NCBI RefSeq assembly: GCF_900634775.1
Contig: NC_041064.1
Location: 1,380,717-1,444,716 of the forward strand
Length of the DNA: 64,000 bases
Direction of reading: 5' to 3'
Origin: Gouania willdenowi
Lineage: Eukaryota
Positions 23,631-64,000 of this stretch are shown in pieces. The translations under genes and the position numbers were made by a program. The notes beneath the pieces are model-generated. The model saw only the letters and a program-made list of their open reading frames with translations. It did no database searches and was not told the origin of the DNA. How positions within the stretch are numbered: position 1 is the first letter of the stretch; every line of letters begins with the position of its first letter.

Positions 23631-23767
23631 GTATTGACATGTTCTGTTGTTTAATGAACTGTTGTTACATTGTTGAATGTTTCTGTGTTTGACTCCTGCT
23701 GTTATCTGCTTTGATCAGAACTGTCGTATAATATAATGATCAGTGTGTTGCTCTCTAACTCCTGCAG

Positions 23768-34002: not shown

Positions 34003-34175
34003 ATGAGCACACCTGATGAAGCTGAGCTCTGCTATCCACACCTGGGAAACTCCTCGTGCAGGAGGATCATGCGCTCTCACTCAGTGTCTGTGCTCATTTC
34101 CATCATCCTGTCCTCCATCTCTGTGCTCACTGTGACCCTCAACCTGCTGGTCATCATCTCTATCTCACACTTCAA
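34003..34175 (+). CDS. TAAR-family GPCR, copy 2, exon 1.
   Basis: Identical in protein to exon 1 of copy 1. Donor is AA|GTAATG at 34176. Confidence 0.8.
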
Positions 34176-34312
34176 GTAATGACATGTTCTGTTGTTTAAT
34201 GAACTGTTGTTACATTGTTGAATGTTTCTGTGTTTGACTCCTGCTGTTATCTGCTTTGATCAGAACTGTCGTATAATATAATGATCAGTGTGTTGCTCTC
34301 TAACTCCTGCAG

Positions 34313-38717: not shown

Positions 38718-39834
38718 TGATTGATTGAGATCTGATTATGGCAAGAGATTTCTCACTTTAAAGATATTTCTCAGGGGGTAAAATCAGTTTTAGGTCAGTT
38801 GACAACAGTGCCCTTCCAAATACATTGACTGATCAAACACAACCACAAGGTTTCTGAGGTGGGTTTTCACAGATGAGTCCAGAGCACCAAGGGAGTTCTT
38901 AATCAGGGGGATCTTTTTATCAGGAGCGATGATCAGAGTGTCGCTTTGTTGGAGTTTATTTGAAGATAATTTGATGACAACCAGTTTTTGATTAAAGACA
39001 CACAATCCAAGAACTCAGATAAACAGTGAAACTCTTTGTCATAAAAGGAGCAATATAGCTGAATATCATCTGCATAGAAATAAGACACATTTTCAAAACC
39101 ACGGATAAACCAACCAAGAGGCATCAGGTACAATAAAAACAAAACAGGCCCCAGAACAGAGCCCTGGGCTACTCCACATGACAGGTTGGACACATTGGAC
39201 ATTACATCGTTAATAGTAACAAAAGTTCTTCCATTTTTATAAGAAGTAAACCACTGGAGAACAGCTCCAGAAAACCTCATCTCAGATTTGAGTCGATCAA
39301 CCAGTATACTGTGATCTACAGAGTCAAAGGCAGATGTTAAATGAAGTAAAACCAAAACTGTGTCGTGACCAGAGTCAGCAGCCGTCACCACGTCACTGGA
39401 AACTTTGACAAGAGCAGTTTCAGTGGAGTGGATTGACCTGAAGCCAGATATATATTTATCATGAAAATCATGCTGTTTCAAGAATGTGGTTAGCTGCTTA
39501 TCCACAACTTTTTCCCTTATTTTTGACATGAGGAGAAGTTTAGATATGGACCGGTAATTTATAGACTCCCCGGGATCAATATGAGGCTTTTTAAGAATGG
39601 GATTCACAATAGCATGTTTAAAGAAGCTGGGGACTGAGCCAGATTGAAGTGAAAGGTTTATCAAATTTACCATCTAACACGCAATGAGGGTTCATCTTTC
39701 CCACTAAAACCTGAACATCCAGTAGGCTGACAGGAGTGAAGGAGGACCTTGAGCACACAGGGGCAGATGCAGTGCACAAGCTAACCAAGGGAGGAGTGAT
39801 ACTGGCCCTAATGTCTTGCACTTTACTCCAGTTT

Positions 39835-40356: not shown

Positions 40357-41039
40357 GTTCACAAATAAGTTCAGAAAATTATTGGAGTCATCCTTTGTGT
40401 GCACAGGCAGGTGTGCCGGAGTCCACCGCCTCGACCCCATTTTTTGGCAGGCTTCCTCCGCGGGAAAGGTGAGCGCAGCAGATCAGCAGGTACTAAAGCC
40501 AAGTGTGGAAGAAGTCCAGATACTTGATCCTCAAAGTTGTAGTTTAGACACACCTCATAAGATTAGTTAAGATTAATAAGTGCCTGACGGTCATACACTA
40601 TCAATGCAGTGATATTTTGGCACAAAATACCGAACAATGCAGTAACAAACAATAGTTTCAGCAGAGCAGACGCTATCGCCATCTTGTCAAGGCTATAGTG
40701 ACCAGCTAGCTGCCAGTATTAGCGCTAGCTAACAACCTCAACTCCCTGCCTGTGCACCCACTCAAAAGGGACAGAGGCCAAAGTCCCTCACACCAGAGGA
40801 TTCGGAGACTCCAGAGCCTGACTCTTTTGATGCAAGAATAAAATATCGAGCCAAGACACACCAGGTCTGCTCGAGCTGCTTGGGGCTGGAACATGCCTGG
40901 CTGGCGGTCGATGTTCCCGGCTCCTGTTGACACTGTGCGGTGTTCACAGTGAAGAGTCTCCACAGATGCCATGCTAGCTTGTCTGGGCTTGACCCTCTTC
41001 TCCCTTCACACGGCGGGGATCGGTGGAAGACATCCTTGA

Positions 41040-44000
41040 ACTGGACTGTGGGGAGGATTAAGATGCCGCCTCTGAACCCCTCATATCAGAGAATGAAGAG
41101 GAAGACACTGTCTTCATCACTCCGGCCCTCCGTTGCCTCTCGGGATGGAGATGAGGGAAGCACACCAGCTGCAATTCTCAATGGCTCGAATATGCTCGAT
41201 GTGTGCAAACGCACTGCTGCCCGGCAAGCCATCCTCTGTCGGAAAAGATTTCCCATGGCCAATAGCAGCAGAAGCGCGCTGCCCGGTGCCTCATCCCTCA
41301 ACTGTGAAGCAGACCCAGGCACCCCTGGAATGCCTGGGTCTGCTCCGCTTGCCTTCGGTGGAGCCACTCGTTCCGCAACTGTCAGCAGTGTCCTCCCGGA
41401 GGCCGAGCCTGCCATTCAAGTCTGACTGTCTCCAGTCAGCCCTGACTGAGAAGGCTTACAAGGCAGTGGCGCTTACTGCGAGAGCGCTCAACGTTCTCTC
41501 CCTGCACACTGCCTATCAGGCTGAGCTGTGCAAGGTTTTTGGGCCAAATCAGGACCCGGCCAGGTGGGAGGAGTTGTCAGTTGTCACCGACCTGTGTCTT
41601 TGTGTTTACCGCTGAAGGAAACCGGTCGGACGGAGAAAAGGGCGATGTCCTGGACATGCCAGTAGTCCCAGAGAGGTTTTTTGGATCTGCATTGACCTCG
41701 ATGCAATGGCGGTGGGAAGCCAACAAGAAGGATGACGAGGCTCCCCGCCTCTGTTTCCCTTGTAAAACCCCAGCTCCATCTCAGGGCTTGCAGTTTAAAA
41801 TGTCTAAACTGTCTTTGCCCTGGCCCATCCTGCCATTTCAAAACAGTCTTTCTGGTTGTTCCAATAAGCCTTCGGCCTCGGCGCAGCATGCCCAGGCCAG
41901 GAAGAAGAAGAGAGCAGCCTGACCGCCCCTCTCTCCTCCGGTGACACAGCTGGAAGTCTTTCGTTCTCCTGCTCCACCAATTTTGCTTTCGAGCTTGCAC
42001 TCATGGGTCCCCCACGCCCCTGTCTCCCCGCTACCACGCCCCGTACCGGAGGTCGCCTTGAAAGACGGACATGTTTCGACAAAGGACTCAGCGGTTTCCT
42101 CTCTTTCATGTCCACAAGCATGCACACACACACACACGATTTATTTAAAATAATAACATGTGTCTCGCTGTTGCACCCATGCCACTGGCCAAGAGCGCAG
42201 GAAATGAATGCATAATCTGTCACAATAAGCAGCGCAGTGACAGCTCCCACTGTTTCCCCTCGGATGTGCAGACGATGCTTGCCCTGCGGTATTTGATCTT
42301 GCATTTATGTGCACTGAACAGATACAGGTTCAGGCTGCTTATGCACGCCTCCCTGCTGCGTCTTTTGCGACAGAACAATTGGTTCATGTCTGTCTACCTG
42401 AAGGACGCGTATTTCCACATCTCAATATATCCTCCCCACAGAAAGTATCTGAAAAGCTTTCCGGGGGATAGGTTACATATACCGCTTGCTCACTCTCTTC
42501 TGCTTCTTGACAAAGGGACAAAGGCAGTCGCATTTTTCTTCTCCCGCTCTCCTCCCTATCTACCCTTGCTGCTTGTTTTGTATGCTGCTATTAGAAGACT
42601 CTCTTTGTATTCATCCAAAACCGAAACCATGAAATTCTTCTGCTGGTCATTTAATGTTATTTATAAAGTTTTTCAATGAAAAGACCAGGCTGAGGTGAGC
42701 CTGCATGCCCTGATGGCTCTTTTCGAGCTGGATACACAATGAATTCCTGGAAGGTTGTATGTCTGTCGCTATTTTCCATTGAGGACGTCGAGGATATATA
42801 CATGAATGGAATCATGTTAGGCAGCCATTTTGGGAAGGCTGCCAGTCAACATTGAAGGTTTGGGCAGGGCGTTGAACTCTGACTATAAGGAATCGATCTT
42901 GGAAAGAATGGAGAGGATGTTTGATCCCACAATATTAGATTACTGTGACCAGAGACTTTCAAGGCTACTGGAAAGAATGCTAGCCTGTAACAAAAACAAT
43001 TCACTATCAACGATTGGCCTCCCCCAACATGCTTAAGGATGTGTTCAATTTCACTGGGATGTTTACAGATGTGACTCTCTGTCCTCATCCCAGCTGAACT
43101 CTTGGCTATGAACCATAACATCCGACTGTATCAGAGGAGAGCAAAGTTTATTGAGTCTGTCTTCTCTGCTTTGGTTTGGTTTCCGGCCCTCTACCCCCCA
43201 CCTTCCCCTCCAGCTCATGGAAGTGTGTGGAGAAGCGCCTACTACTGGCAGCACGCTGCAACCCCCCTCCCCCAGCGGCTGGATATCCCCTACCCCTCTT
43301 CGCCCCCGACCCACATCCAACCCCCACCATCCCATGTGCTATACTGTGACTGTGTTATCTTATTTGTGTTTTTCTAGCTGAGAGGTTTTTCCTGGTTCTG
43401 TACTTTGTTCTCCTTTTGAGAATTCAATTCATAATCTGTTTTTTCCCCTAACCTCTCCTTCTGTTGTTTTCCCTTTTTTCATCTAAATATGGGGCGCCTC
43501 CAATGCTCTTGACCCACAATTCGCCCGTTTTTGTCTCTCATGTTATTTGTTACTGTTTTTCCTTGTTTTTATCTGTGAAAAGCACTCTGTAAATAAAGAT
43601 TACTTTTTGACTTACTCCCTTTCTGTCTTTCTTTAAGCCCGAGGGTGTAAGTCTTGCTGAGACGGCAGGGCATCCGCTTGTTGGAGGTGGAAGCCAGAGC
43701 GCACACGCGTATGCTATTATGTCACCTGTTCTACCTGGGTTTTGTGATAAACTCGGAAAAGAGCATGTTGTCACCAGCATAGGAAATGGCCTTCCTGGTA
43801 CTATCCCTGCACTCAGCGTCTTTCACGACGCACCTCTCAGTGGAACGGGTGAAAGCGTTCAGGGCATGCCTCACACTTTTCCAACTGTGCAAATCTGTTC
43901 AATTCAGATTATGTCTTCGGGAATTCGGGCTGATGGCATCTGTCATCCTCGTACTCTGCCTCGGTCGCCTCCAGAATTCCAGCTGTGGGTGGACTCGTGC

Positions 44001-45600
44001 GGGCTGGACCACATACAGAATGGCACACGTAGGGTACTGGTCAAGCCGGAGTGTGCCGAGGCTTTATACAGAGTCCCGGTTTTCATGACGCACAGTGTGC
44101 TGTCGTGTCCAGGAAGGTGGTCACCATGGACACCAGCCTGACAGGCTGGGGTGGGGTTCACAAGGGCCGGTCTCTGAGGGGCCACTGGAGTGTGGACCTC
44201 CAGCGCTCTCGCATAAATTATTTGGAGCTTTCAGCGGTTTTACTCACTGAAAAGTATCCTCCCGTCTCTCATGGGACACCATATCCTGGTGAGGACGAAC
44301 AATACAACGACGGTGGCGTATATCAACGCCAGGGTGGATTACTCTGCTGTCGGTTGCATATGTTGGCACGCAAACTGATTCTGTGGAGTTGTGGTTGCTT
44401 CCTCTTTCTGAGGGCGACACACATCCAGAGAATCCTGAACACGGACGCTGACCTGTTGTCCAAGGACGCGCTGCTGTACAGGGTGTGGATGCTACACCCG
44501 TACATGGTGCAACAGTTACTGACCCGTTACGAGTTCTGTTCACCGAGGCAGGAGATGCACAGTGTACGCTGTTTAACTCCCTGCCCAGCACGGGCGCTCC
44601 CCTCGGCATACTATACAGATTGCCTGAGCGTTGTTTGGGGATGGTGTCACCAGAAGTGACATACCCCGTTTCAGTGTCCGGTAGGAATGATTTTGTCATC
44701 TGCAGGATCTGATTGACGAACAAAAAGACTGACAGTGTGTTTGGCAGTGATTGCCGCCTGTCACCTGGGCTTTGGGAAGAAAACAGCAACACCTAACCCC
44801 TAACCCAACACCCAGTGATTTGCCGTTTTATGAAATGAGCATGCAGGCTCCTCCCCGTGTCCAGACCGCTGGTGCCACCGTGGGATCTGGCAGTGGAGGG
44901 ACAAAAATGTCTTTCTTTTGAACCGCTAAGGGAGGCAGACTTTAAGTTTGTCTCTCTGAAAACAGTTTTGTTACTGGCTCTGGTGGGTCAGTGACATCCA
45001 TGCGTTTTTGGTACACCCGCCATCCGCTCAGCTCTTCCCGGGCAATGTAAGGCTGATTTTGAAGACGAACTTGGCCTTTGTACTGAAGGTGTTGGGCTCA
45101 TGTTCTCCTATTGACCTCATGACCTTCTCTATCTCATAGGGTGAGCAGCGGCCTCATATGTTGTATCCGGTCTTTGCAGTGCACGCTTACAGTGCATGGA
45201 CATGACGGGGAGCTTCAACTGTTCGTCTTCTGGGCTAATCTTCATAAGGGAAAACCTGTCACAAAGCAGCGCCTTTCCCCCTTTGTGGTGGAGACTGGTG
45301 CCCTGCTGTGCCTGGGTGATAGAGGTTGCCACAGTGCTCTGTGGGGCCAGTATAGTTCTGGGGGTTCCGCGGAGTGGGTTTCCGGCTGTGCTGTTCGGCA
45401 CGTCCCTGGGGCCTCGCGGTGCCGCTTGCGTTCCTCTCCAGTGTCTTACTGTCTGGACAGGCCGTGCTCACAGCAAATAGGCCTCCTACACAGACACTAC
45501 ACTTAATTTCCAGCTGGTCTGGCTCTTTCACGTTGTGTATCACACCCCTATCCAACCCATGGGGGTCTGGATGATGGGGGCCCCGTGCCACTAATGCTTT
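41040..45600 (+). mobile_element. DIRS-like YR retroelement, unit 2 copy, degenerate.
   Basis: Paralogous to 28830-33490. The RT motif WFMSVYLKDAYFHISIYPPHRKYLKSF lies at ~42370. RNase H INYLELSAVLL lies at ~44210. The YR region is 45141-45590. Confidence 0.7.
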
Positions 45601-46114
45601 TTATGTTTTATTAGGCTTAACATGTAAACATTATCAGTGCGGGTGGAAAAAGTATGTGAGCAGGCCGTTTCTGAGAGAGATCTTAATTTATTTCTTTTTT
45701 TTTCTTTTAACCTTGTCTGCACATGAGGGAGATCTTAATAAATGTGAGTAAAGTACAATCATCATCTGAATCTGTTCTAGTGTCTAAAGGACCCTTAACT
45801 GAGCAAGTGATTTGTCACACAAGTATAAGAACCTGAAAACCTGGACAATTTGGTGTTATCAAATTAATAGAAATGGCATCTGGATGGTATAAAGCAAACT
45901 GTATGATGTCATCAAGAATAGACGCCCTCACAGGAGCAAGAATACATTCTGTTTTTATCATTACATAACTTGTAGAGCCATAGGTCTCTGAGGGAGGTTC
46001 CATCCTCAGGTCCAACCTCCACATCCCTGTGTTTGAGCAGGAATAATATATCAGTTGTACATCAGAGAGCCTGAGGCAGAACGCTGCAGAGCTCAGCAGG
46101 TTCTCCTCCTCACT

Positions 46115-46287
46115 ATGAGCACACCTGATGAAGCTGAGCTCTGCTATCCACACCTGGGAAACTCCTCGTGCAGGAGGATCATGCGCTCTCACTCAGTGTC
46201 TGTGCTCATTTCCATCATCCTGTCCTCCATCTCTGTGCTCACTGTGACCCTCAACCTGCTGGTCATCATCTCTATCTCACACTTCAA
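46115..46287 (+). CDS. TAAR-family GPCR, copy 3, exon 1.
   Basis: Identical in protein to exon 1 of copy 1. Donor is AA|GTAATG. Confidence 0.8.
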
Positions 46288-46424
46288 GTAATGACATGTT
46301 CTGTTGTTTAATGAACTGTTGTTACATTGTTGAATGTTTCTGTGTTTGACTCCTGCTGTTATCTGCTTTGATCAGAACTGTCGTATAATATAATGATCAG
46401 TGTGTTGCTCTCTAACTCCTGCAG

Positions 46425-47235
46425 GAAGCTGCACACTCCCACCAACTTCCTCCTCCTCTCTCTCGCTCTGTCAGATTTCTCTGTGGGATTTGTTTGGATT
46501 TTTCAGATCCTGCTCTTAGACGGCTGCTGGTATTTCAGTGATGGCTGGTGTGTCTTTAATGCATTCTTAACTGCTTTTGTCACCTGTGCTTCAGTAGGAA
46601 CTGTTGTGCTGATATCAGTTGATCGTTATGTGGCTGTTTGTGATCCAATGCACTATTCTACCAAAGTTACTCCAAACACAGCAAAGATGAGTGTTGTCTT
46701 ATGTTGGTTTTGTTTCTTTGTCTTTTACACTGCAATGCTCAAAGACAATATTGAACATCCAGGTGGGTTTAATACCTGTGTAGGAGAGTGTGTAGTTTAT
46801 TTACCTCCTGTTGCAGGAATCATTCATATCATTTTTACTTTTATCTTTCCAGTGAGTATCATAGTGGTCTTGTATGTCAGAGTGTTTGCAGTGGCTGTGT
46901 CTCAGGCCCGGGCCATGCGCTCTCATGTTACAGTGGTGACACTTCATGGATCACTGAAGGTTAACAGATCAGAGCTGAAAGCAGCCAGAGCTCTGGGTGT
47001 AGTGGTTGTTGTGTCTATAATGTGTTTATCTCCACTTTATATTGCTATACTTTCAGCAGGGTTTGCAGGGTTAAAGGCATCATCTTATGTTGCTTTTTCA
47101 TGTGTACATTTAATCAACTCCTTACTAAACCCTGTGATCTATGCATTTCTGTATCCTTGGTTCAGGAAATGTGTGAAATGTATTTTTTCTCTTCAGATTC
47201 TGAAGTCTGGTTCCAGTGAGGCCAACATACTGTAA
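46425..47235 (+). CDS. TAAR-family GPCR, copy 3, exon 2. Stop at 47233-47235.
   Basis: Nearly identical to copy 1, including the TM5 version AGIIHIIFTFIFP. It differs from copy 1 at a few codons (for example WISQIL is WIFQIL, and ATLSAG is AILSAG). Confidence 0.85.
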
Positions 47236-48523: not shown

Positions 48524-51220
48524 GAAGTAAGTAAGTATGTACATTTTTATTTATAAAGTGCTTTTTGCAGATAAAAATCACAAAGGGCTGTACAAAAAGG
48601 AGGATAAGTTAAAACAACTGGAGCAACATCATAAAAGCATAATAAAATGTAGTGAATTTACAACAACAGGAGCATTTATTAAAGAATAATAAAAGTTGAA
48701 GAAAAAAATGTTCAACCAAAAGCTTTACTGAAAAGCGAAGTCTTCAGGTGATTCTTAAGAGTTCACACAGTCAAGCTTCCGGAGGGACTGGTGAAGGTCA
48801 TTCCAGAGTCTGGGGGCCACAGCCTAAAACTCCAGGTCTCCCCGGGTTTTAAAATTAGCTTTTGGGATCTTTAGGAGACCCTGGCCTGAAGACCAAAGGC
48901 TGCGCCCTGAAGTGTAGGGGTACAACAAGTCTGCGATATACTGAGGGGCCTGACCATGCAAAGCACTGAAAGTCAGGACTGCAATTTTAAACAATATGCA
49001 AAATTTGACCGGTAGCCAATGAAAACTTGTAAGAATCGGGGTAATTTGGGCTTGCAGCATCATTCTGTACGATCTGAAGTCTGTTCAGTCGACTTGTTAA
49101 AACAAGTAAAAACAAAATTACAATAATCAATGCAAGACAATATAAACGCGTGGATGATCATTTCGAGATCTGATTATGACAAGAGATTTCTCACTTTAAA
49201 GATATTTCTCAGGGGGTAAAATCAGTTTTCGGTTAGTTGACAACAGTGCCCTTCCAAATACATTGACTGATCAAACACAACCACAAGGTTTCTGAGGTTG
49301 GTTTTCACAGATGAGTCCAGAGCACCAAGGGAGTTCTTAATCAGGGGGATCTTTTTATCAGGAGCGATGATCAGAGTGTCGATTTGTTGGAGTTTATTTG
49401 AAGATAATTTGATGACAACCAGTTTTTGATTAAAGACACACAATCCAAGAACTCAGATAAACAGTGAAACTCTTTGTCATAAAAGGAGCAATACAGCTGA
49501 ATATCATCTGCATAGAAATAAGACACATTTTCAAAACCACGGGAAAACCAACCAAGAGGCATCAGGTACAATAAAAACAAAACAGGCCCCAGAACAGAGC
49601 CCTGGGCTACTCCACATGACAGGTTGGACACATTGGACATTACATCGTTAATAGTAACAAAAGTTCTTCCATTTTTATAAGAAGTAAACCACTGGAGAAC
49701 AGCTCCAGAAAACCTCATCTCAGATTTGAATCGATCAACCAGTATACTGTGATCTACAGAGTCAAAGGCAGATGTTAAATGAAGTAAAACCAAAACTGTG
49801 TCGTGACCAGAGTCAGCAGCCGTCACCACGTCACTGGAAACTTTGACAAGAGCAGTTTCAGTGGAGTGGATTGACCTGAAGCCAGATATATATTTATCAT
49901 GAAAATCATGCTGTTTCAAGAATGTGGTTAGCTGCTTATCCACAACTTTTTCCCTTATTTTTGACATGAGGAGAAGTTTAGATATGGGCCGGTAATTTAT
50001 AGGCTCCCCGGGATCAATATGAGGCTTTTTAAGAATGGGATTCACAATAGCATGTTTAAAGAAGCTGGGGACTGAGCCAGATTGAAGTGAAAGGTTTATC
50101 AAATTTACCATCTAACACGCAATGAGGGTTCATCTTTCCCACTAAAACCTGAACATCCAGTAGGCTGACAGGAGTGAAGGAGGACCTTGAGCACACAGGG
50201 GCAGATTCAGTGCACAAGCTAACCAAGGGAGGAGTGATACTGGCCCTAATGTCTTGCACTTTGTTCACAAATAAGTTCAGAAAATTATTGGAGTCATCCT
50301 TTGTGTGCACAGGCACATGGGGGATGGGGGCGCAACAAGATTTTCAATAGTGTCAAATAAGACTTTTAGGGTTCTCTTGTTACGCAAAACAAGATTTGAG
50401 AAAGAAGCTGAGCAAGCAAGTTTTATTTCATTTAGCTCCATTATCATTTCTTTAAGAAGTGAATTCATCAAGAAATAATTGAGCACGACCAGGAGGTTGG
50501 TAGACTAAAACAAAGTTAAAAGGGTGTTCGTTTCCAACCTTACACGTCTGAAACTTGAAGGAGTTGTACGTGTTCGTGTCCATCAGTCTGCAGCCAAGAA
50601 AGTCACGGTATACTAGCCCCAAACTGCCTCCATGACGCGTGAGTTGAGGAGTCCCAACCACGAAGCAGTCCGGAGGGCACAGTTCAATAAGATGAACAAA
50701 CTCATTCTCCCGCTACCAGGTCTCCATGAGGCACATAACATCCAGCTCGCGGGACATGAAAAAGTCCTTCAGGAGATGTGCTTTGTTGGCTAGTGATCTA
50801 GAATTCTACTGGCACCAGCGTAGACACTTCCTCGTAAGCCCATGGAGAGCTGTGGTGCAGCGGCCGAAGGGATCCCTAATCCACACCACGGTGCCGGAGT
50901 CCACCGCGTCGACCCCATTTTTTGGCAGGCTTCCTCCGCGGGACAGGTGAGCGCAGCAGATCAGCAGGTACTAAAGCCAAGTGTGGAAGAAGTCCAGAAG
51001 CTTGATCCTCAAAGTTGTAGTTTAGACACACCTCATAAGATCAGTTAAGATTAATAAGTGCCTGACGGTCATACACTATCAATGCAGTGATATTTTGGCA
51101 CAAAATACCGAACAATGCAGCAACAAACAATAGTTTCTGCAGAGCAGATGCTAGCGCTATCTTGTCAAGGCTATAGTTACCAGCTAGCTGTCAGTGTTAG
51201 CCTCTAGCTAACAACCTCAA
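48524..51220 (-). mobile_element. L2-clade LINE, unit 3 copy.
   Basis: Minus-strand ORFs 49371-50111 (RT), 50452-50661 (EN) and 48824-49063 (C-terminus) are paralogous to unit 1. Confidence 0.75.
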
Positions 51221-51489: not shown

Positions 51490-54400
51490 CCTTGAACTGG
51501 ACTGTGGGCAGGGTTAAGATGCCGCCTCTGAACCCCTCATATCAGAGAATGAAGAGGAAGACACTGTCTTCATCACTCCAGCCCTCCGTTGCCTCTCGGA
51601 ATGGAGATGAGGGAAGCACACCAGCTGCAATTCTCAATGGCTCGAATATGCTCGATGTGTGCAAACGCACTGCTGCCCGGCAAGCCATTCTCTGTCAGAA
51701 AAGAATTCCCACGGCCAAGGGTGCACCAAGGCATTTTTCCCCGTCTTCCGGAGCTGCTCAAAGTAGCGCATTCATGGAAGGACCGCCCCATTAGCACCAG
51801 AAGCGCGCTGCCCGGTGCCTCATCACCACAGCCAACACAGCATAACGTGGATGGCTGTTCATCATAGGAATGGGATCCACACAAGGTTCCTGCTGCTTAA
51901 CAGAAGGTTTTCCTTGCCGCCATGATGAATTCATGTTGGGTGTGGGATACATATGTATGTGTATATACGTATATATGCATATGTGTGAATCCATAAAATG
52001 AAGAGTCCGTCCTTAAGACTGCTCTACTGTAAAGTGTCTTGAGATACCATTGGTTTTGATTTGGCGCTATACAAATAAAAGATTGATTGATTGATTGATT
52101 GATCCCTCAACTGTGAAGCAGACCCAGGCACCCCTGGAATGCCTGGGTATTGCTCCACTTTCTTCCGGTGGAGCCACTCGTTAAGCAACTGTCAGCAGTG
52201 TCCTCCCGGAGGCCGAGCCTGCCATCCAAGTCTGACCGTCTCCAGTCAGCCCTGACTGAGAAGGCTTACAAGGCAGTGGCGCTTACTGTAAGAGCGCTCA
52301 ACGTCCTCTCCCTGCACACTGCCTATCAGGCTGAGCTCTGCAAGGTTTTTGGGCCAACTCAGGACCCGGCAGGTGGGAGGAGATGTCAGTTGTCACCGAC
52401 CTGTGTCTTTAACGCTAAGCAGTCCAGGCGACAGGGAGAGTGATGGAGCTATAGTGCTGCGAGAAACCTGTCGGACAGAGAAATGGGTGATGTCCTGGAC
52501 ATGCCAGTAGTCCCAGAGGGGGTTTTTGGATCCGCAATGGTGGTGTGAAGCAAACAATAAGGATGACGAGGCACCCCGCTTCTGTTTCTCTTGTAAAACC
52601 CCAGCTGCATCTCAGGGCTTGCAGTTTAAAATGTCTAAACTGTCTGTGCCCTGGCCCGTCCTGCCGTCTCAAAACAGTCTTTCTGGCTGGTCCAATAAGC
52701 CTTCGGCCTTGGCTACAGCTCCGCCGGCACAGCCTGCGCAGCATGCCCAGGCCAGGAAGAAGAAGAGAGCAGCCTGACAGTAACACAGCTGGAAGTCCCT
52801 CGTTTTCCAGCTCCACCTATTTTGCTTTCAAGCTTGCACTCGTGGGTCCCCCATGCCCCTGTCTCCCCGCTACCACACCTCGGACCGGAGGTCGCCTTGA
52901 AAGATGGACATGTTACGATGAAGGACTCAGCGGTTTCCCCTCTTTCATGTCCACAAGCATGCACACACACACACACACGATTTATTTAAAATAATATGTG
53001 TCTCGCTGTTGCACCCAGGCCAAGGGCCGAGGGCGCAGGAAATGAAAGCAAAATCTGTCACAATAAGCAGCACGGTGACTCCCTTTGTTCCCCTCGGGTG
53101 AGCAGACGATGCTCGCCCTGCGGTATTTGCTCTATCTTGGATCTATGTGCACTGAACAGATACAGGTTCAGGCTGCTTACGCACACCTCCCTGCTGCGTC
53201 TTGTGCGACAGAACAATTGGTTCACGTCTGTCGATCTGAAGGACGCGTATTTCCACATCTCAATATATCCTCCCAACAGAAAGTATCTGAAAAGCTTTCC
53301 AGGGGATAGGTTACATATACCGCGTGCTCACTCTCTTCTGCTTCTTGACAAAGGGACAAAGGCAGTCGCATTTTTCTTCTCCCGCTCTCCTCCCTATCTA
53401 CCCTTGCTGCTTGTTTTGTCTGCTGCTATTAGGAGACTCTCTTTGTATTCATCCAAAACCGAAACTATGAAATTGGTCTGCTGGTCATTTAATGTTATTT
53501 ATAAAGTTTTTTCAATGAAAAGACCAGGCCGAGGTGAGCCTGCATGCCCTGATGGCTCTTTTTGAGCTGGATACACAATAAATTCCTGGAAGGTTGTATG
53601 TCTGTCACTATTTTCCATTGCTTTGGTTTTCGCCGGCCCTCTACCCCCCACCTTCCCCTCCAGCTCATGGAAGTGTGTGGAGCAGCGCCTACTACTGGCT
53701 GCATGCTGCGCCCCCCTACCCCAGCGGCTGGATATCCCCTCCCCCTCTTCGCCCTGACCCACGTCCAACGCCCAACATCCCATGTGCTATACTGTGACTG
53801 TGTTATCTTATTTGTGTTTTTCTAGCTGAGAGGTTTTGTCTGGTATTCTATTACGTTACCTGTCCTACCTGGGTTTTGTGATAAACTCGGAAAAGAGCAT
53901 GTTGTCCCCAGCATAGGAAATGGCCTTCCTGGTACTATCCCTGCATTCAGTGTCTTTCACGAAGCACCTCTCAGTGGAACGGGTGAAAGCGTTCAGGGCA
54001 TGCCTCACACTTTTCCAACTGTGCAAATCTGTTCAATTCAGATTATGTCTTCGGGTATTCGGGCTGATGGCATCTGTCATCCTCGTACTCTGCCTCGGTC
54101 GCCTCCAGAATTCCAGCTGTGGGTGGACTCGTGCGGGCTGGACCACATACAGAATGGCACACGGAGGGTACTGGTCAAGCCGGAGTGTGCCGAGGCTTTA
54201 TGCAGTCCCTACCGGGGGCTGTCGTGTCCAGGAAGGTGGTCATCATGGACACTAGCCTGAAAGGCTGGGGTTCACGAGGGCCGGTCTCTGAGGGGCCACT
54301 GGAGTGTGGACCTCCAGCGCTCTCGCATATATTATTTGGAGCTTTCAGCGGTTTTACTCTCGCTGAAAAGTATCCTCCCGTCTCTCATGGGACACCATGT

Positions 54401-55975
54401 CCTGGTGAAGATGGACAATACAACGACGATTGCGTATATCAACGCCAGGGTGGATTGCTCTGCTGTTGGTTGCATATGTTGGCACGCAAACTGATTCTGT
54501 GGAGTTGTGGTTGCTTCCTCTCTCACACACATCCAGAGAATCCTGGACACGGACGCTAACCTGTTGTCCAAGGACGCGCTGCTGTACGGGGTGTGGATGT
54601 TACACCCGTATGTAGTGCAACAGTTCCTGACCCGTTCCGAGTTCTGTTCACCGAGGCAGGAGATACACAGTGTACGCTGTTTAACTCCCTGCACAGCACG
54701 GGCGCTCCCCTCGGCAATAGGCGCACTAGCGCACATTTGGCCGCGCTTGTTTCTTTATGTTATTCCCCCAGTTGGCTCTGTTGCCCCCTATTCTGACCAG
54801 GGTGAGGGAGCATGAAACCACTGATCCTGGTGGCTCCACATTGGCCTGCGATGCACTGGCTGGTAGAGATTTACCAGTTACTGCGCGCTCGCCCCTGGCA
54901 GCTCCCGCTGCGCAGGGACTTGCTGTCGCAGGGAAAGGGCACGGTTTTCCACCCAAATCCGGAGTGCTTGGTGCTGTGGGTTTCACCCCTGAGTGGTTCA
55001 ATCTTTCAGCTGTGGGATTCTCACAGTGTGATCTCTACTATACAGATTGCCCGAGCATTTGGGGATGGTGTCACCAGAAGGGACATACCCCTTTTTAGTG
55101 TCCGGCAAGAATGATTTTGTCATTTCTGCAGGATCTGATTAACGAACGGAAAGACTGTGACAGTGTGTTTGGCAGTGATTGCCACTTGTCATGTGGGCTT
55201 TGGGAAGAAAACAGCAAGCCAACACCCAGTGATTTGCCATTTTGTGAAAGGAGCATGCAGCCTCCTCCCCGTGTCCAGACCGCTGGTGCCACCGTGGGAT
55301 CTGGCAGTGGAGGGACAAAAATGTCTTTCTTTTGAACCGCTAAGGGAGACAGACTTCAAGTTTGTTTCTCTGAAAACAGTTTTGTCACTGGCTCTGGTGG
55401 GTCAGTGACATCCATGCGTTTTTGGTGCACCCGTCATCCGCTCAGCTCTTCCCGGGCAATGTAAGGCTGATTTTGAAGACGAACTTGGCCTTTGTACTGA
55501 AGGTGTTTGGCTCATGTTCTCCAATTGACCTCATGGCCTTCTCTATCTTATAGGGTGAGCAGCGGCCTCATATGTTGTATCCGGTCTTTGCAGTGCACGC
55601 TTACAGTGCATGGACATGACGGGGAGCTTCAACTGTTCGTCTTCTGGGCTAATCTTCATAAGGGAAAACCTGTCACAAAGCAGCGCCTGTCCCCCTTTGT
55701 GGTGGAGACTGGTACCCTGCTGTGCCTGGGGGGTAGAGGTTGCCGGCGTGCTCTGTGGGGCCTGTATGGTTCTGGGGGTGCCACGTGGTCCCTGGGGCCT
55801 CGCGGCGCCGCTTGCGTTCCTCTCCGGTTGCTTGCTGTCTGGACAGGCCGTGCTCACAGCAAACAGGCCTCCTACACAGACAATTCACTTAATTTCCAAC
55901 TGGTCTGGCTCTTTCACGTTGTGCATCACACCCCTATCCAACCCATGGGGGTCTGATTGATTGGGGTCCCGTGCC
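51490..55975 (+). mobile_element. DIRS-like YR retroelement, unit 3 copy, degenerate. It carries a short nested LINE tail insert and retains a ~370-bp internal segment (54700-55110) that is missing from units 1 and 2.
   Basis: Paralogous ORFs: RT ~53190-53300, RNase H 54119-54560, an additional domain MKPLILVAPHWPAMHWLVEIYQLLRARPWQLPL (54812-55114), and the YR region 55507-55960. Confidence 0.7.
51835..52102 (+). mobile_element. Very short 5'-truncated copy (3'UTR only, ~270 bp) of the (TGAT)n-tailed LINE family, inserted in the unit 3 DIRS gag-like region.
   Basis: Nearly identical to 38459-38717 (...cacagcataacgtggatggctgttcatcataggaatggg...gcgctatacaaataaaagattgattgattgattgattga). Absent at the orthologous site of unit 1 (29035-29095) and unit 2. 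Confidence 0.7.
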
Positions 55976-56445
55976 ACTAATGCTTTTTATGTTTTATTAA
56001 GCTTAACATGTAAACATCAGTCTTGTGGAAAAAGTGTGTGTGCAGGCCGTCTCTGAGGGAGATCTTAAAAAATGTGAGTAAAGTAGAATCATCATCTGAA
56101 TCTGTTCTAGTGTCTAAAGGACCCTTAACTGAGCAAATGATTTGTCACACAAGTATAAGAACACCTGAAACCTGGACAATTTGGTGTTATCAAATTAATA
56201 GAAACGACATCTGGATGGTGTAAAGCAACCTGTATGATGTCATCAAGAATAGACGCCCTCACAGGAGCAAGAATACTTTCTGTTTTTATCATTACGTAAC
56301 TTGTAGAACCATAGGTCTCTGAGGGAGGTTCCATCCTCAGGTCCAGCCTCCACATCCCTGTGTTTGAGCAGGAATAATATATCAGTTGTACATCAGAGAG
56401 CCTGAGGCAGAACGCTGCAGAGCTCAGCAGGTTCTCCTCCTCACT

Positions 56446-56618
56446 ATGAGCACACCTGATGAAGCTGAGCTCTGCTATCCACACCTGGGAAACTCCTCGT
56501 GCAGGAGGATCATGCGCTCTCACTCAGTGTCTGTGCTCATTTCCATCATCCTGTCCTCCATCTCTGTGCTCACTGTGACCCTCAACCTGCTGGTCATCAT
56601 CTCTATCTCACACTTCAA
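56446..56618 (+). CDS. TAAR-family GPCR, copy 4, exon 1.
   Basis: Identical in protein to exon 1 of copy 1. Confidence 0.8.
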
Positions 56619-56755
56619 GTAATGACATGTTCTGTTGTTTAATGAACTGTTGTTACATTGTTGAATGTTTCTGTGTTTGACTCCTGCTGTTATCTGCTTT
56701 GATCAGAACTGTCGTATAATATAATGATCAGTGTGTTGCTCTCTAACTCCTGCAG

Positions 56756-57566
56756 GAAGCTGCACACTCCCACCAACTTCCTCCTCCTCTCTCTCGCTCT
56801 GTCAGATTTCTCTGTGGGATTTGTTTGGATTTTTCAGATCCTGCTCTTAGACGGCTGCTGGTATTTCAGTGATGGCTGGTGTGTCTTTAATGCATTCTTA
56901 ACTTCTATTTCAACTGCTGCTTCAGTAGGAACTGTTGTGCTGATATCAGTTGATCGTTATGTGGCTGTTTGTGATCCAATTCACTATTCTACCAAAGTTA
57001 CTCCAAACACAGCAAAGATGAGTGTTGTCTTATGTTGGTTTTGTTCTGTGGTCTGTTACACTACAATGCTCAAAGACAATATAAAACATCCAGGTGGGTT
57101 TAATACCTGTGTAGGAGAGTGTGTAATTTATGTACCTCCGGTTGCAGGAATTGTGAGTCTCCTTCTGAAATTCCTCATTCCAGTGAGTATCATAGTGGTC
57201 TTGTATGTGAGAGTGTTTGCAGTGGCTGTGTCTCAGGCCCGGGCCATGCGCTCTCATGTTACAGTGGTGACACTTCATGGATCACTGAAGGTTAACAGAT
57301 CAGAGCTGAAAGCAGCCAGAGCTCTGGGTGTAGTGGTTGTTGTGTCTATAATGTGTTTATCTCCACTTTATATTGCTACACTTTCAGCAGGGTTTGCAGG
57401 GTTAAAGGCATCATCTTATGTTGCTTTTTTATGTGTGTTTTTAATCAACTCCTTACTAAACCCTGTGATCTATGCATTTCTGTATCCTTGGTTCAGGAAA
57501 TGTGTGAAATGTATTTTTTCTCTTCAGATTCTGAAGTCTGGTTCCAGTGAGGCCAACATACTGTAA
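56756..57566 (+). CDS. TAAR-family GPCR, copy 4, exon 2. Stop at 57564-57566. This is the most divergent copy.
   Basis: Same scaffold as the others. TM5 is the copy 2 type (AGIVSLLLKFLIP). Unique changes in TM3 (FLTSISTAASVGT), TM4 (CWFCSVVCYTTML), ECL2 (DNIKHPGG) and TM7 (AFLCVFLINS). Confidence 0.85.
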
Positions 57567-58861: not shown

Positions 58862-61560
58862 AAGTAAGTAAGTATGTACATTTTTATTTATAAAGTGCTT
58901 TTTGCAGATAAAAATCACAAAGGGCTGTACAAAATAGAGGATAAGTTAAAACAACTGGAGCAACATCATAAAAGCATAATAAAATGTAAGTGAATTTACA
59001 ACAACAGGAGCATTTATTAAAGAATAATAAAAGTTGAAAAAAAAAATGTTTAACCAAAAGCTTTACTGAAAAGTGAAGTCTTCAGGTGATTCTTAAGAGT
59101 TCACACAGTCAAGCTTCCGGAGGGACTGGTGAAGGTCATTCCAGAGTCTGGGGGCCACAGCCTAGAACTCCAGGTCTCCCTGGGTTTTAAAATTAGCTTT
59201 TGGGATCTTTAGGAGACCCTGGCCTGAAGACCAAAGGCTGCGCCCTGAAGTGGAGGGGTACAACAAGTCTGCGATATACTGAGGGGCCTGACCATGCAAA
59301 GCACTGAAAGTCAGGACTGCAATTTTAAACAATATGCAAAATTTGACCGGTAGCCAATGAAGACTTGTAAGAATCGGGGTAATTTGGGCTTGCAGCATCA
59401 TTCTGTACGATCTGAAGTCTGCTCAGTCGACTTGTTAAAACAAGTAAAAACAAAATTACAATAATCAATGCAAGACGATATAAACGCGTGGATGATCATT
59501 TCGAGATCTGATTATGACAAGAGATTTCTCACTTTAAAGATATTTCTCAGGGGGTAAAATCAGTTTTCGGTCAGTTGACAACAGTGCCCTTCCAAATACA
59601 TTGACTGATCAAACACAACCACAAGGTTTCTGAGGTTGGTTTTCACAGATGAGTCCAGAGCACCAAGGGAGTTCTTAATCAGGGGGATCTTTTTATCAGG
59701 AGCGATGATCAGAGTGTCGATTTGTTGGAGTTTATTTGAAGATAATTTGATGACAACCAGTTTTTGATTAAAGACACACAATCCAAGAACTCAGATAAAC
59801 AGTGAAACTCTTTGTCATAAAAGGAGCAATATAGCTGAATATCATCTGCATAGAAATAAGACACATTTTCAAAACCACGGATAAACCAACCAAGAGGCAT
59901 CAGGTACAATAAAAACAAAACAGGCCCCAGAACAGAGCCCTGGGCTACTCCACATGACAGGTTGGACACATTGGACATTACATCGTTAATAGTAACAAAA
60001 GTTCTTCCATTTTTATAAGAAATAAACCACTGGAGAAAAGCTCCAGAAAACCTCATCTCAGATTTGAGTCGATCAACCAGTATACTGTGATCTACAGAGT
60101 CAAAGGCAGATGTTAAATGAAGTAAAACCAAAACTGTGTCGTGACCAGAGTCAGCAGCCGTCACCACGTCACTGGAAACTTTGACAAGAGCAGTTTCAGT
60201 GGAGTGGATTGACCTGAAGCCAGATATATATTTATCATGAAAATCATGCTGTTTCAAGAATGTGGTTAGCTGCTTATCCACAACTTTTTCCCTTATTTTT
60301 GACATGAGGAGAAGTTTAGATATGGGCCGGTAATTTATAGGCTCCCCGGGATCAATATGAGGCTTTTTAAGAATGGGATTCACAATAGCATGTTTAAAGA
60401 AGCTGGGGACTGAGCCAGATTGAAGTGAAAGGTTTATCAAATTTACCATCTAACACGCAATGAGGGTTCATCTTTCCCACTAAAACCTGAACATCCAGTA
60501 GGCTGACAGGAGTGAAGGAGGACCTTGAGCACACAGGGGCTGATGCAGTGCACAAGCTAACCAAGGGAGGAGTGATACTGGCCCTAATGTCTTGCACTTT
60601 GTTCACAAATAAGTTTAGAAAATTATTGGAGTCATCCTTTGTGTGCACAGGCACATGGGGGGATGGGGGCGCAACAAGATTTTCAATAGTGTCAAATAAG
60701 ACTTTTGGGGTTCTCTTGTTACGCAAAACAAGATTTGAGAAAGAAGCTGAGCAAGCAACTTTTATTTCATTTAGCTCCATTATCATTTCTTTAAGAAGTG
60801 AATTCATCAAGAAATTATTGAGCACGACCAGGAGGTTGGTAGACTAAAACAAAGTTAAAAGGGTGTTCGTTTCCAACCTTACACGTCTGAAACTTGAAGG
60901 AGTTGTACGTGTTCGTGTCCATCAGTCTGCAGCCAAGAAAGTCACGGTATACTAGCCCCAAACTGCCTCCATGACGCGTGAGTTGAGGAGTCCCAACCAG
61001 GAAGCAGTCCGGAGGGCACAGTTCAATAAGATGAACAAACTCATTCTCCCGCTGCCAGGTCTCCATGAGGCACAAAACATCCAGCTCGCGGGACATGAAA
61101 AAGTCCTTCAGGAGATGTGCTTTGTTGGCTAGTGATCTAGCATTCTACTGGCACCAGCGTAGACACTTCCTCGTAAGCCCATGGAGAGCTGTGGTGCAGC
61201 GGCCGAAGGGATCCCTAATCCACACCACGGTGCCGGAGTCCACCGCGTCGACCCCATTTTTTGGCAGGCTTCCTCCGCGGGACAGGTGAGCGCAGCAGAT
61301 CAGCAGGTACTAAAGCCAAGTGTGGAAGAAGTCCAGATACTTGATCCTCAAAGTTGTAGTTTAGACACACCTCATAAGATTAGTTAAGATTAATAAGTGC
61401 CTGACGGTCATACACTATCAATGCAGTGATATTTTGGCACAAAATACCGAACAATGCAGCAACAAACAATAGTTTCAGCAGAGCAGACGCTAGCGTCATC
61501 TTGTCAAGGCTATAGTGACCAGCTAGCTGTCAGTGTTAGCCTCTAGCTAACAACCTCAAC
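58862..61560 (-). mobile_element. L2-clade LINE, unit 4 copy.
   Basis: Minus-strand ORFs 59709-60449 (RT), 60394-60825, 60815-61096 (EN) and 59162-59401 (C-terminus). Confidence 0.75.
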
Positions 61561-61829: not shown

Positions 61830-64000
61830 CTTGAACTGGACTGTGGGCAGGATTAAGATGCCGCCTCTGAACCCCTCATATCAGAGAATGAAGAGGAAGA
61901 CACTGTCTTCATCACTCCAGCCCTCCGTTGCCTCTCGGAATGGAGATGAGGGAAGCACACCAGCTGCAATTCTCAATGGCACGAATATGCTCGATGTGTG
62001 CAAACGCACTCGATGTGTGCTGCCCGGCAAGCCATCCTCTGTCGGAAAAGAATTCCCACAGCCAAGGGTGCACCAAGGCATTTTTTCCCGTCTTCCGGAG
62101 CTGCTCGAAGTGGCGCATTCATGGAAGGACCGCCCCATTAGCAGCAGAAGCGCGCTGCCCGGTGCCTCATCCCCACACCCAACACAGCATAACGTGGATG
62201 GCTGTTCATCATAGGAATGGGATCCACACAAGGTTCCTGCTGCTTAACAGAAGGTTTTCCTTGCCGCCATGATGAATTCATGTTGGGTGTGGGATACATA
62301 TGTATGTGTATATACGTATATATGCATATGTGTGTATCCATAAAATGAAGAGTCCGTCCTTAAGACTGCTCTACTGTAAAGTGTCTTGAGATACCATTGG
62401 TTATGATTTGGCGCTATACAAATAAAAGATTGATTGATTGATTGATTGATTGATCCCTCAACTGTGAAGCAGACCCAGGCACCCCTGGAATGCCTGGGTA
62501 TTGCTCCACTTTCTTCCGGTAGAGCCACTCGTTAAGCAACTGTCAGCAGTGTCCTCCCGGATGCCGAGCCTGCCATCCAAGTCTGACCGTCTCCAGTCAG
62601 CCCTGACTGAGAAGGCTTACAAGGCAGTGGCGCTTACTGTAAGAGTGTTCAACGTCCTCTCCCTGCACACTGCCTATCAGGCTGAGCTCTGCAAGGTTTT
62701 TGGGCCAACTCAGGACCCGGCAGGTGGGAGGAGATGTCAGTTGTCACCGACCTGTGTCTTTAACGCTAAGCAGTCCAGGCGACAGGGAGAGTGATGGAGC
62801 TATGGTGCTGCGGGAAACCTGTCGGACAGAGAAATGGGTGATGTCCTGGACATGCCATTAGTCCCAGAGGGGGTTTTTGGATCCGCAATGGTGATGTGAA
62901 GCAAACAAGAAGGATGACGAGGCACCCCGCCTCTGTTTCTCTTGTAAAACCCCAGCTGCATCTCAGGGCTTGCAGTTTAAAATGTCTAAACTGTCTGTGC
63001 CCTGGCCCGTCCTGCCGTCTCAAAACAGTCTTTCTGGCTGGTCCAATAAGCCTTCGGCCTCGGCTACAGCTCCGCTGGCACAGCCTGCGCAGCATGCCCA
63101 GGCCAGGAAGAAGAAGAGAGCAGCCTGACAGTAACACAGCTGGAAGTCCCTCATTTTCCAGCTCCACCTATTTTGCTTTCAAGCTTGCACTCGTGGGTCC
63201 CCCATGCCCCTGTCTCCCTGCTACCACGCCTCAGACCGGAGGTCGCCTTGAAAGATGGACATGTTACGATGAAGGACTCAGCGGTTTCCCCTCTTTCATG
63301 TCCACAAGCATGCACACACACACACACACGATTTATTTAAAATAATAACATGTGTCTCGCTGTTGCACCCAAGCCAAGGGCCGAGGGCGCAGGAAATGAA
63401 AGCAAAATCTGTCACAATAAGCAGCACGGTGACAGCTCCCTTTGTTTCCCCTCGGGTGAGGAGACGATGCTCGCCCTGCGGTATTTGCTCTATCTTGGAT
63501 CTATGTGCACTGAACAGATACAGGTTCAGGCTGCTTACGCACACCTCCCTGCTGCGTCTTGTGCGACAGAACAATTGGTTCACGTCTGTCGATCTGAAGG
63601 ACGCGTATTTCCACATCTCAATATATCCTCCCCACAGAAAGTATCTGAAAAGCTTTCCGGGGGATAGGTTACATATACCGCGTGCTCACTCTCTTCTGCT
63701 TCTTGATAAAGGGACAAAGGCAGTCGCATTTTTCTTCTCCTGCTCTCCTCCCTATCTACCCTTGCTGCTTGTTTTGTCTGCTGCTATTAGGAGACTCTCT
63801 TTGTATTCATTCAAAACCGAAACTATGAAATTGGTCTGCTGGTCATTTAATGTTATTTATAAAGTTTTTTCAATGAAAAGACCAGGCCGAGGTGAGCCTG
63901 CATGCCCTGATGGCTCTTTTTGAGCTGGATACACAATGAATTCCTGGAAGGTCATCTGTCTGTCGCTATTTTCCATTGAGAACATCGAGGATATATACAT
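61830..64000 (+). mobile_element. DIRS-like YR retroelement, unit 4 copy. Cut off by the window end. It contains the same short LINE-tail insert as unit 3.
   Basis: Paralogous to 51490-53900. The RT motif WFTSVDLKDAYFHISIYPPHRKYLKSF lies at ~63580. Confidence 0.7.
62171..62453 (+). mobile_element. Short 5'-truncated copy of the (TGAT)n-tailed LINE, at the same position as in unit 3.
   Basis: Nearly identical to 51835-52102. Confidence 0.7.

Follow-up and report, generated by a model that had tools for sequence, protein, structure and literature searches.

The 64-kb window of Gouania willdenowi analysed here, a stretch of 64,000 nucleotides of contig NC_041064.1, contains four tandem copies of a two-exon gene for a trace amine-associated receptor (TAAR), with a unit length of 10.3-12.1 kb and 327 amino acids encoded by each copy. 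All four genes are on the plus strand, and positions are given in window coordinates. A first-pass annotation had described the last gene, copy 4, as a newly duplicated odorant receptor in which clustered substitutions in the ligand pocket look like the result of diversifying selection; the structure and the origin of these differences are the subject of this analysis. The copy 1 gene (23458-24578; exon 1 23458-23630, exon 2 23768-24578) encodes the protein XP_028292703.1. The copy 2 gene (34003-35123; exon 1 34003-34175, exon 2 34313-35123) and the copy 3 gene (46115-47235; exon 1 46115-46287, exon 2 46425-47235) both have 327 intact codons and intact splice sites. In copy 4, exon 1 (56446-56618) starts with the ATG at 56446 (Met1), ends after the second base of codon 58 and encodes the N-terminus and the first transmembrane helix (TM1). 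The intron (56619-56755) is 137 bp long with GT..AG borders and the donor GTAATG after 56618. Exon 2 (56756-57566) encodes TM2-TM7, the C-terminus and the stop codon, and matches Pfam 7tm_1 with E=8.7e-39.

The spliced product of copy 4 is a 100% match to the Gouania willdenowi RefSeq protein XP_028291861.1. The open reading frame described before (56724-57566, 280 amino acids) consists of exon 2 plus intron read-through; its ATG lies in the intron, and the true exon 1 is found about 280 bp upstream of that ATG, joined by the GT..AG splice. The intron is the same in all four copies except for a single base in copy 1, at 23633, where the donor reads GTATTG and not GTAATG as in copies 2-4. None of the four copies has a frameshift or a premature stop, and none has lost a splice site or an essential motif, so that no features of a pseudogene were found. 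The exact proteins of copies 2 and 3 were absent from the public collection of 15 billion sequences that was searched, and RefSeq and Ensembl seem to lack these genes or to have other models for them. A fifth copy, XP_028291864.1 (P0122), was obtained from a protein cluster at 90% identity and is located on the same 38.98 Mb chromosome, outside the window. The array is thus at least five two-exon TAAR genes and extends past the window. Copy 5 and the other clingfish paralogs were compared as proteins, and comparison at the DNA level covers copies 1-4.

Copy 4 scores 134 bits with PF00001, against a cutoff of 30.5, and has the class A motifs of G protein-coupled receptors (GPCRs) at N47, D75, D124-R125-Y126, W152, P200, P261 and N293-P294..Y297, which correspond to N1.50, D2.50, DRY, W4.50, P5.50, P6.50 and NPxxY. 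Position 6.48, the toggle switch of class A receptors, is Leu and not Trp (CLSP vs CWxP) in all array copies (residue 259 in copy 4, 57357-57359); nearly all retrieved homologs have Leu, Val or Ile here, and the solved TAAR13 structures have Trp. The TAAR fingerprint of TM7, NSxxNPxxYxxxYxWF, reportedly defined by Lindemann and colleagues in 2005, is present at residues 289-304 of copy 4 (NSLLNPVIYAFLYPWF). The best 120 matches in the database search were all TAAR-like by name or without a family name (generic GPCR profile or 'unnamed protein product'), and none bore the name of another receptor family. The nearest relatives were 'trace amine-associated receptor 13c-like' and '8a-like' proteins of Gouania willdenowi; these NCBI names, TAAR13c-like and TAAR8a-like, are automated labels and do not denote orthology. 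The best 15 matches in PDB were all TAARs (E=5e-56 to 5e-30), the nearest being zebrafish TAAR13a, c, d and e (E=5e-56 to 6e-52, residues 5-326), with adrenergic and histamine receptors appearing from about 1e-27 upward. Judged by the fingerprint and the nearest relatives, the product of copy 4 is a predicted TAAR olfactory receptor and not a receptor of the OR family. The intact reading frame and the sparing of structural motifs were correctly described, as DRY, NPxxY, W4.50, P5.50, P6.50 and the TM7 fingerprint are unchanged in copy 4.

Copy 4 differs from copies 1-3 at 12 residues, numbered here according to Ballesteros-Weinstein with R125 as 3.50, W152 as 4.50, P200 as 5.50 and P294 as 7.50. 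In the TM3 patch (56904-56917), seven private nucleotide changes and one common with copy 2 fall within 14 bp and result in A108S (3.33), F109I (3.34), V110S (3.35), a synonymous change in T111 and C/S112A (3.37), so that copy 4 reads FLTSISTAASVGT vs FLTAFVTCASVGT in copies 1 and 3 and FLTAFVTSASVGT in copy 2. The TM4 patch (57046-57055), with the string CWFCSVVCYTTML in copy 4, has five nucleotide changes in 10 bp that give F155S (4.53), F156V (4.54) and F158C (4.56). A dinucleotide change in the second extracellular loop (57083-57084) turns ATT GAA into ATA AAA, which is synonymous in I167 and gives E168K in the string DNIKHPGG. In TM7 (57430-57439), where copy 4 has AFLCVFLINS and the others AFSCVHLINS, S283L (7.39) is caused by a change at 57430, and the replacement of GTA CAT by GTG TTT at 57437-57439 is synonymous in V285 and gives H286F (7.42). 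Two isolated point changes are M133I (56981) in the second intracellular loop, where Ile is found in none of 38 other clingfish paralogs, and L184V (5.34; 57132). The peptide strings in the first-pass annotation were all found in place, the changed nucleotides all lie within 56890-57440, and its placement of the TM3 changes (3.33, 3.34, 3.35 and 3.37) and of the TM7 changes (7.39 and 7.42) agrees with the present numbering. Copy 2 is also the nearest to copy 4 among the copies in the window; beyond 20 private nucleotide changes in copy 4 the two differ only at codon 84, at the second base of codon 112 and at codon 144.

The flank rate would lead to about 4.2 changes in exon 2 (811 bp), a number far exceeded by these 20 private ones (Poisson P=2e-8). 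Copy 4 has 10 private changes in the roughly 1950 bp made up of exon 1, the intron and the 5' and 3' flanks, and gene-proximal non-coding DNA gives a rate of 0.53% (26 changes in 4880 bp). The changes are also tightly packed. Gaps of no more than 3 nt between neighbouring changes were observed 12 times with a null mean of 1.4, a number reached in 0 of 100,000 permutations (P<1e-5), and four codons were hit more than once vs 0.46 expected (P=4e-4). Seventeen of the 20 changes are located in codons with an altered amino acid. The clustering of copy 4's differences, as first described, is confirmed as real and far beyond chance, and takes the form of tight multi-nucleotide patches.

Much of this pattern is not restricted to copy 4. 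The patches in TM3 (FLTSISTAAS), TM4 (CSVVCYTT) and TM5 (described below) recur in copy 5, as does F7.42. Copy 5 agrees with copies 1-3 at M133, E168, V182, L184 and S7.39, and has V281 and F287 (7.43) of its own. Over the five copies only M133I, E168K, L184V and L283 are therefore unique to copy 4, and the TM3 patch, the TM4 patch and F7.42, which had been taken as private, are common to copy 5.

The direction of change was assessed with the 38 paralogs mentioned above and 58 homologs from other species, together with a neighbour-joining (NJ) tree of clingfish sequences. In this tree the sister clade of the array is (P0004,(P0003,(P0014,P0006))). The states F109, F155, S283 and H286 of copies 1-3 were found in none of the 38 paralogs and F156 in one, vs 9 of 38 for I109, 36 of 38 for S155, 9 of 38 for L283 and 18 of 38 for F286, the states of copy 4. 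Of the four nearest outgroups, three have V156 and three have L283. In the set from other species, Phe occupies 7.42 in 52 of 58 homologs, and 56 have Ile, Met or Leu at 7.39. Because copies 1-3 carry residues absent or nearly absent from the paralogs at residues 109, 155, 156, 283 and 286, where copy 4 is family-typical and the other copies are odd, the direction of change is, judged by this outgroup comparison, partly reversed. About a third to a half of the supposed substitutions in copy 4 are more probably changes on the side of copies 1-3, and at 7.42 the real change was probably from F to H and not, as given, from H to F. The view that the substitutions arose in copy 4 fits better at A108S, V110S, M133I, F158C, E168K and L184V, where copy 4 looks derived. 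The polarity of the changes is unreadable from the copies in the window alone.

The array has a mosaic structure. The TM5 patch (57140-57177; 5.41-5.49, including 5.42 and 5.46) exists in two versions that differ at 16 of 38 nt, IVSLLLKFLI in copies 2, 4 and 5 and IIHIIFTFIF in copies 1 and 3. Codon 84 in copies 1-4 is TCA/TCA/TTT/TTT and the TM5 patch is A/B/A/B, so that all four combinations are present and the four-gamete test is violated. Both states are multi-nucleotide (2 nt in codon 84 and 16 nt in 38 bp in the TM5 patch), and recurrent mutation therefore cannot account for the violation. Copy 2 is itself a mosaic, copy-1-like to codon 158, copy-4-like in codons 161-199 and copy-1-like again in TM7. 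Substitutions in the flanks form a star phylogeny among the copies.

Divergence along the repeat unit is discordant. The gene-proximal region of about 6 kb, outside the middle of exon 2, differs by 0.2-1.4% in all pairs. The distal spacers are of two types, type A after copies 1 and 2 and type B after copies 3 and 4, with 1.4-3.8% divergence within a type and 4-10% between types. The collinear spacers are 29000-33600 and 40400-45900 for type A and 52400-56070 and 62800-64000 for type B, with 96-98% identity within and about 88-92% between types. The type B spacer after copy 4 (62000-64000) has 97.5-98% identity to the spacer after copy 3 and is about 5-10% off the type A spacers. The gene tree joins copies 1 and 3, in conflict with the spacer types, which join 1 with 2 and 3 with 4. 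A nearly invariant segment of 486 bp on the plus strand (56347-56832) extends from promoter-proximal DNA through exon 1 and the intron into the start of exon 2. By our own arithmetic, the private non-coding rates predict about 11.6 variable sites in it among the four copies, and one was observed, as a result either of homogenisation that is very recent or of a strong constraint to which the intron is also subject.

The four-gamete violation and the mixture of regions with 1.4% divergence or less and regions with 4-10% together indicate that the array is an older, recombining mosaic; incompatible partitions and discordant divergence along the unit are both characteristic of a recombinant or gene-converted tandem array. 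To judge from the spacers the array is older than the gene-proximal identity of about 98% suggests, and would have been homogenised by recombination or conversion. The description of copy 4 as newly duplicated is consequently too simple and, given the four-gamete violation, no single copy-4 branch exists.

Rates of non-synonymous (dN) and synonymous (dS) substitution were calculated pairwise among the four copies by the Nei-Gojobori method (NG86). The dN/dS ratios are 0.58-0.97. None is above 1, and the elevated dN/dS that diversifying selection on copy 4 would predict was not obtained. For copies 2 and 4, dS is 0.0244 and dN 0.0236, both about threefold above the flank difference of about 0.9%. 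Each of the three purely synonymous private changes, in T111, I167 and V285, lies at a distance of 1 nt from a non-synonymous one (P about 4e-5), and three codons differ synonymously in the TM5 patch too. The private changes of copy 4 that lie outside the patches are three non-synonymous and no synonymous ones, vs about 3.1 and 1.1 expected at the flank rate. Since the synonymous changes adjoin non-synonymous ones and dS is inflated, complex mutational events are implied, and the pattern indicates that the patches are probably multi-nucleotide or templated events, not series of selected point mutations. With such clustered multi-nucleotide changes and with recombination, a branch-site dN/dS test would report positive selection whether or not it was real, unless it used outgroup DNA and models that allow for recombination and multiple hits.

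For the TM3 patch, a gapped alignment needs, in place of eight mismatches, only three and a pair of indels (-1/+1) spaced by 7 nt, a gain of 7 score units matched by 1.3% of random sets of substitutions at the same positions. The patch is thus possibly a compensated -1/+1 frameshift, which would also account for the synonymous change from ACC to ACT. The same realignment gave no signal for TM4 (19% of random sets were as good) or TM5 (94%). A search for templates of the copy 4 patches in the window, with k-mers of 11-14 nt on both strands, gave a sole match of at least 12 nt, in T/G-rich DNA near 1491-1495, and two isolated, chance-like 11-mers. Among 124 retrieved TAAR proteins, SISTA, CSVVC and FLCVF were found in none but copies 4 and 5. 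The paralog P0003 was considered as the donor of a continuous tract, as it has S155, V156, C158 and K168, but was rejected because it differs at 161-163. Since the public proteins do not include even copies 2 and 3, there may also be donors without annotation.

The relation of the changes to the ligand pocket was examined with a list of 12 positions (3.32, 3.33, 3.36, 3.37, 5.42, 5.43, 6.48, 6.51, 6.52, 7.39, 7.42 and 7.43), compiled from the orthosteric residues of mouse TAAR7e (PMC13382630) and Asp5.42 (PMC4695389). The TM7 numbers of PMC13382630 were moved by one, as the conserved Tyr that is 7.42 there is 7.43 in standard numbering according to the TAAR13 alignment. Differences between copy 4 and copies 1-3 were found at 4 of the 12 pocket positions and at 8 of the 315 others (Fisher P=4.5e-4), in accordance with the proposed enrichment over the rest of the protein. 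For all variable sites in the array the numbers are 7 of 12 and 22 of 315 (P=1.2e-5). The changed sites are also variable in the family, with a mean Shannon entropy over the 38 paralogs of 1.52 vs 0.72 bits (Mann-Whitney P=3e-4). The statement that the substitutions occupy canonical ligand-contact positions applies to 3.33, 3.37, 7.39 and 7.42, four of the 12 changed residues, and not to 3.34, 3.35, 4.53 and 4.54, which from general class A GPCR geometry would lie at the interface of TM3 and TM4. Copies 1-3 have a unique cluster of Phe residues (F3.34, F4.53, F4.54 and F4.56), and packing co-variation is a possible alternative for the TM3 and TM4 differences. The pocket combination of copy 4 is T3.32, S3.33, A3.37, S5.42, K5.46, L7.39 and F7.42, and its TM7 is more hydrophobic (L7.39, F7.42) than that of copies 1-3 (S7.39, H7.42).

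The explanation held with moderate confidence is that the locus is a recombining mosaic TAAR array in which pocket segments exist in distinct versions, the patches arose by complex events and were probably kept for tuning. It draws on the observed gene models, clustering, mosaic, outgroup polarity and pocket enrichment, together with presumed receptor expression and putative selection for ligand diversity. Unequal crossing-over or gene conversion would keep the gene-proximal 6 kb or so of each unit near-identical, while short exon 2 segments in or next to the pocket lining (TM3 3.33-3.37, TM4 4.53-4.56, TM5 5.41-5.49 and TM7 7.39-7.43) would occur in sharply distinct versions, with a combination that varies from copy to copy. 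Copy 4 would then consist of three parts: family-typical and probably ancestral states lost by copies 1-3 (I3.34, S4.53, V4.54, L7.39 and F7.42), states common to copy 5 (the TM3 and TM4 patches and F7.42), and four private changes (M133I, E168K, L184V and L7.39). The TM3 patch may go back to a compensated -1/+1 frameshift; other candidate origins of the patches are replacements of two or three nucleotides and an exchange of at least about 115 bp between copies around TM5. The patches would probably have been kept since different pockets tune odour in neurons that each express one receptor. It is plausible that selection for diversity in ligands or odour tuning retains them; of the proposed diversifying selection on specificity, the non-random distribution with enrichment at pocket and hypervariable sites stands, and the dN/dS of 0.58-0.97, the complex events and the recombination speak against its simple form.

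Several points weigh against this explanation. With dN/dS about 1 and isolated private changes at the neutral flank rate, neutral drift of a young duplicate is possible. No donor of the patches was found in the window or in the 124 proteins except copy 5, and an exchange from outside the array is unproven. The low divergence near the gene could in part reflect constraint or heterogeneity in mutation rate and not homogenisation. The pocket list was compiled after the data had been seen, pocket sites are also the least constrained, and the enrichment alone is no proof of positive selection.

A purely neutral origin of the array's diversity is an alternative that is considered unlikely. Rare complex mutations, such as compensated frameshifts, multi-nucleotide mutations or micro-conversion with pseudogenes or unannotated copies as donors, would have drifted to fixation at tolerant sites in young, weakly constrained duplicates with no adaptive tuning, copy 4 maybe being on its way to a pseudogene. 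A dN/dS of about 0.8-1.0 and isolated private changes at the flank rate are what such duplicates would have, the TM3 patch fits an indel pair, unannotated donors are plausible with copies 2 and 3 unannotated, and hypervariable positions may be merely unconstrained. It is less easily reconciled with several independent complex events on or beside the pocket helices and none in exon 1, TM1-2, TM6 or the C-terminus, or with the pocket enrichment (P=4.5e-4, and 1.2e-5 for all array-variable sites). Frames, splice sites and class A motifs are intact in four copies, and the private exon 2 rates of copies 1 and 3 (0.62% and 0.25%) are at or below the non-coding rates (0.78% and 0.57%), which suggests some constraint.

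The scenario of the first-pass annotation, a recent duplicate of a copy-2-like gene followed by independent pocket substitutions under positive selection on the copy 4 lineage, is improbable. It would account for the excess of private changes (20 vs 4.2), for the 17 of 20 in codons with altered amino acids, for the pocket enrichment and for the intact frame and motifs, and positive selection has been reported for teleost clade III TAARs (Hussain et al. 2009, as cited in PMC4695389). However, the TM3 and TM4 patches and F7.42 are common to copy 5, and at 5 of the 12 sites it is copies 1-3 that have a residue missing, or all but missing, from the 38 paralogs and copy 4 that has the typical one. 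Neither dN/dS values of 0.58-0.97 with dS about threefold over the flanks, nor synonymous changes that occur only inside patches, an excess of multi-hit codons and a violated four-gamete test, are expected from serial selected substitutions on one lineage. That the patches of copy 4 result from mis-assembly or haplotype mixing is very improbable: units 97.5-98.7% identical over several kb, in an array with 97-99% identity, are prone to collapse and chimeras, but the patches recur in the independent copy 5, the reading frame is intact throughout, and every copy has private flank substitutions and indels, with a 2.1 kb retroelement insertion of its own in copy 2.

The pocket of the array lacks the usual anchors of amine receptors. 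Position 3.32 is T107 in all five copies (56901-56903 in copy 4), and Asp3.32 is absent. Asp5.42 is not found either, as position 5.42 (residue 192; 57156-57158 in copy 4) is His in copies 1 and 3 and Ser in copies 2, 4 and 5. None of the 38 clingfish paralogs has D3.32; an acidic residue at 5.42 is present in 18 and lacking in 20. Of the 58 nearest homologs in other percomorphs, 41 keep both the 3.32 and the 5.42 anchor. The replacement of Asp5.42 by His or Ser means that detection of amines by the array copies cannot be assumed. Basic residues are found in the pocket instead, K5.46 in copies 2, 4 and 5 (57168-57170 in copy 4, 34725-34727 in copy 2), H5.42 in copies 1 and 3, and H7.42 in copies 1-3, an unusual feature in a receptor for cationic amines and a hint that the ligands belong to another class. 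It is conceivable, and no more than a speculative extension of the mosaic explanation, that the clingfish expansion has moved off amine sensing, with pocket 'cassettes' in TM3, TM4, TM5 and TM7 recombined among copies to yield new specificities for non-amine, possibly anionic, ligands. If true, this would be a mechanism for combinatorial diversification within an olfactory receptor array. The loss of the canonical amine-anchoring aspartates across the clingfish expansion, taken with the basic pocket residues, is the most interesting by-product of the analysis.

The locus fits the known pattern of teleost TAARs and is in that respect biologically ordinary. Lineage-specific tandem expansion, loss of Asp3.32 and hypervariability of the pocket are described for teleost clade III TAARs (Hussain et al. 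2009, as cited in PMC4695389), and some teleost TAARs have late intron gains (PMC8032801). The array resembles clade III in its features: a rhodopsin-type receptor of seven transmembrane helices with the TAAR fingerprint, loss of Asp3.32, large species-specific tandem arrays, variation in the pocket helices and an intron. It is unlike clade III in having His or Ser at 5.42, where most clade III TAARs keep Asp as the amine anchor, a defining feature of the group with non-classical amine recognition (Li et al. 2015, PMC4695389). The best structural matches to copy 4, zebrafish TAAR13a/c/d/e (structures 9m0x, 9m2s, 9m3s and 9m40), are receptors of the diamines cadaverine and putrescine with roughly 40% identity to copy 4, judged by eye from the HMMER alignment. 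They have Asp3.32, Asp5.42, W7.40 and Y7.43, whereas copy 4 has T3.32, S5.42, C7.40 and L7.43. A direct precedent for retuning of a TAAR by changes of the kind found at 3.37 (C/S/A) is reported for the mouse tandem duplicates TAAR7e and TAAR7f, which are 93% identical and in which the adjacent TM3 residues 3.37 and 3.38 are enough to switch ligand preference (PMC13382630, citing Ferrero et al. 2012). The mouse pair keeps Asp3.32, detects amines and has an experimentally established function, unlike the clingfish genes, which are known from sequence.

Concerted evolution with islands of diversity is known from the peptide-binding residues of the major histocompatibility complex (MHC) and, as accelerated change of exon segments, from snake toxin genes. 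In these families, as in the array, flanks, introns and scaffold are near-identical and the segments of the binding site are divergent and reshuffled. They are different protein families, and in the clingfish array both donors and selection are putative. In the literature collection searched, no paper joins Gouania willdenowi with TAAR. Tandem chemoreceptor arrays are the birthplace of new smell specificities, and at this locus near-identical units are found with a few sharply different pocket segments shuffled among them.

Repetitive DNA is found in the rest of the window. The unit of copy 2 has a private insertion of about 2.1 kb (36598-38726) with an open reading frame of 479 amino acids that contains a reverse-transcriptase domain (RVT_1, E=4e-35), probably a fragment of a long interspersed nuclear element (LINE). 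A reverse-transcriptase fragment in an open reading frame of 246 amino acids (RVT_1, E=8e-24) is located on the minus strand in the units of copies 2, 3 and 4, at 38933-39673, 49371-50111 and 59709-60449; since all three have kept it, an old retroelement was copied together with the gene. At 353-1367, a long imperfect TG/CA-rich microsatellite gives rise to spurious Cys/Val-rich and Thr/His-rich open reading frames in several frames.

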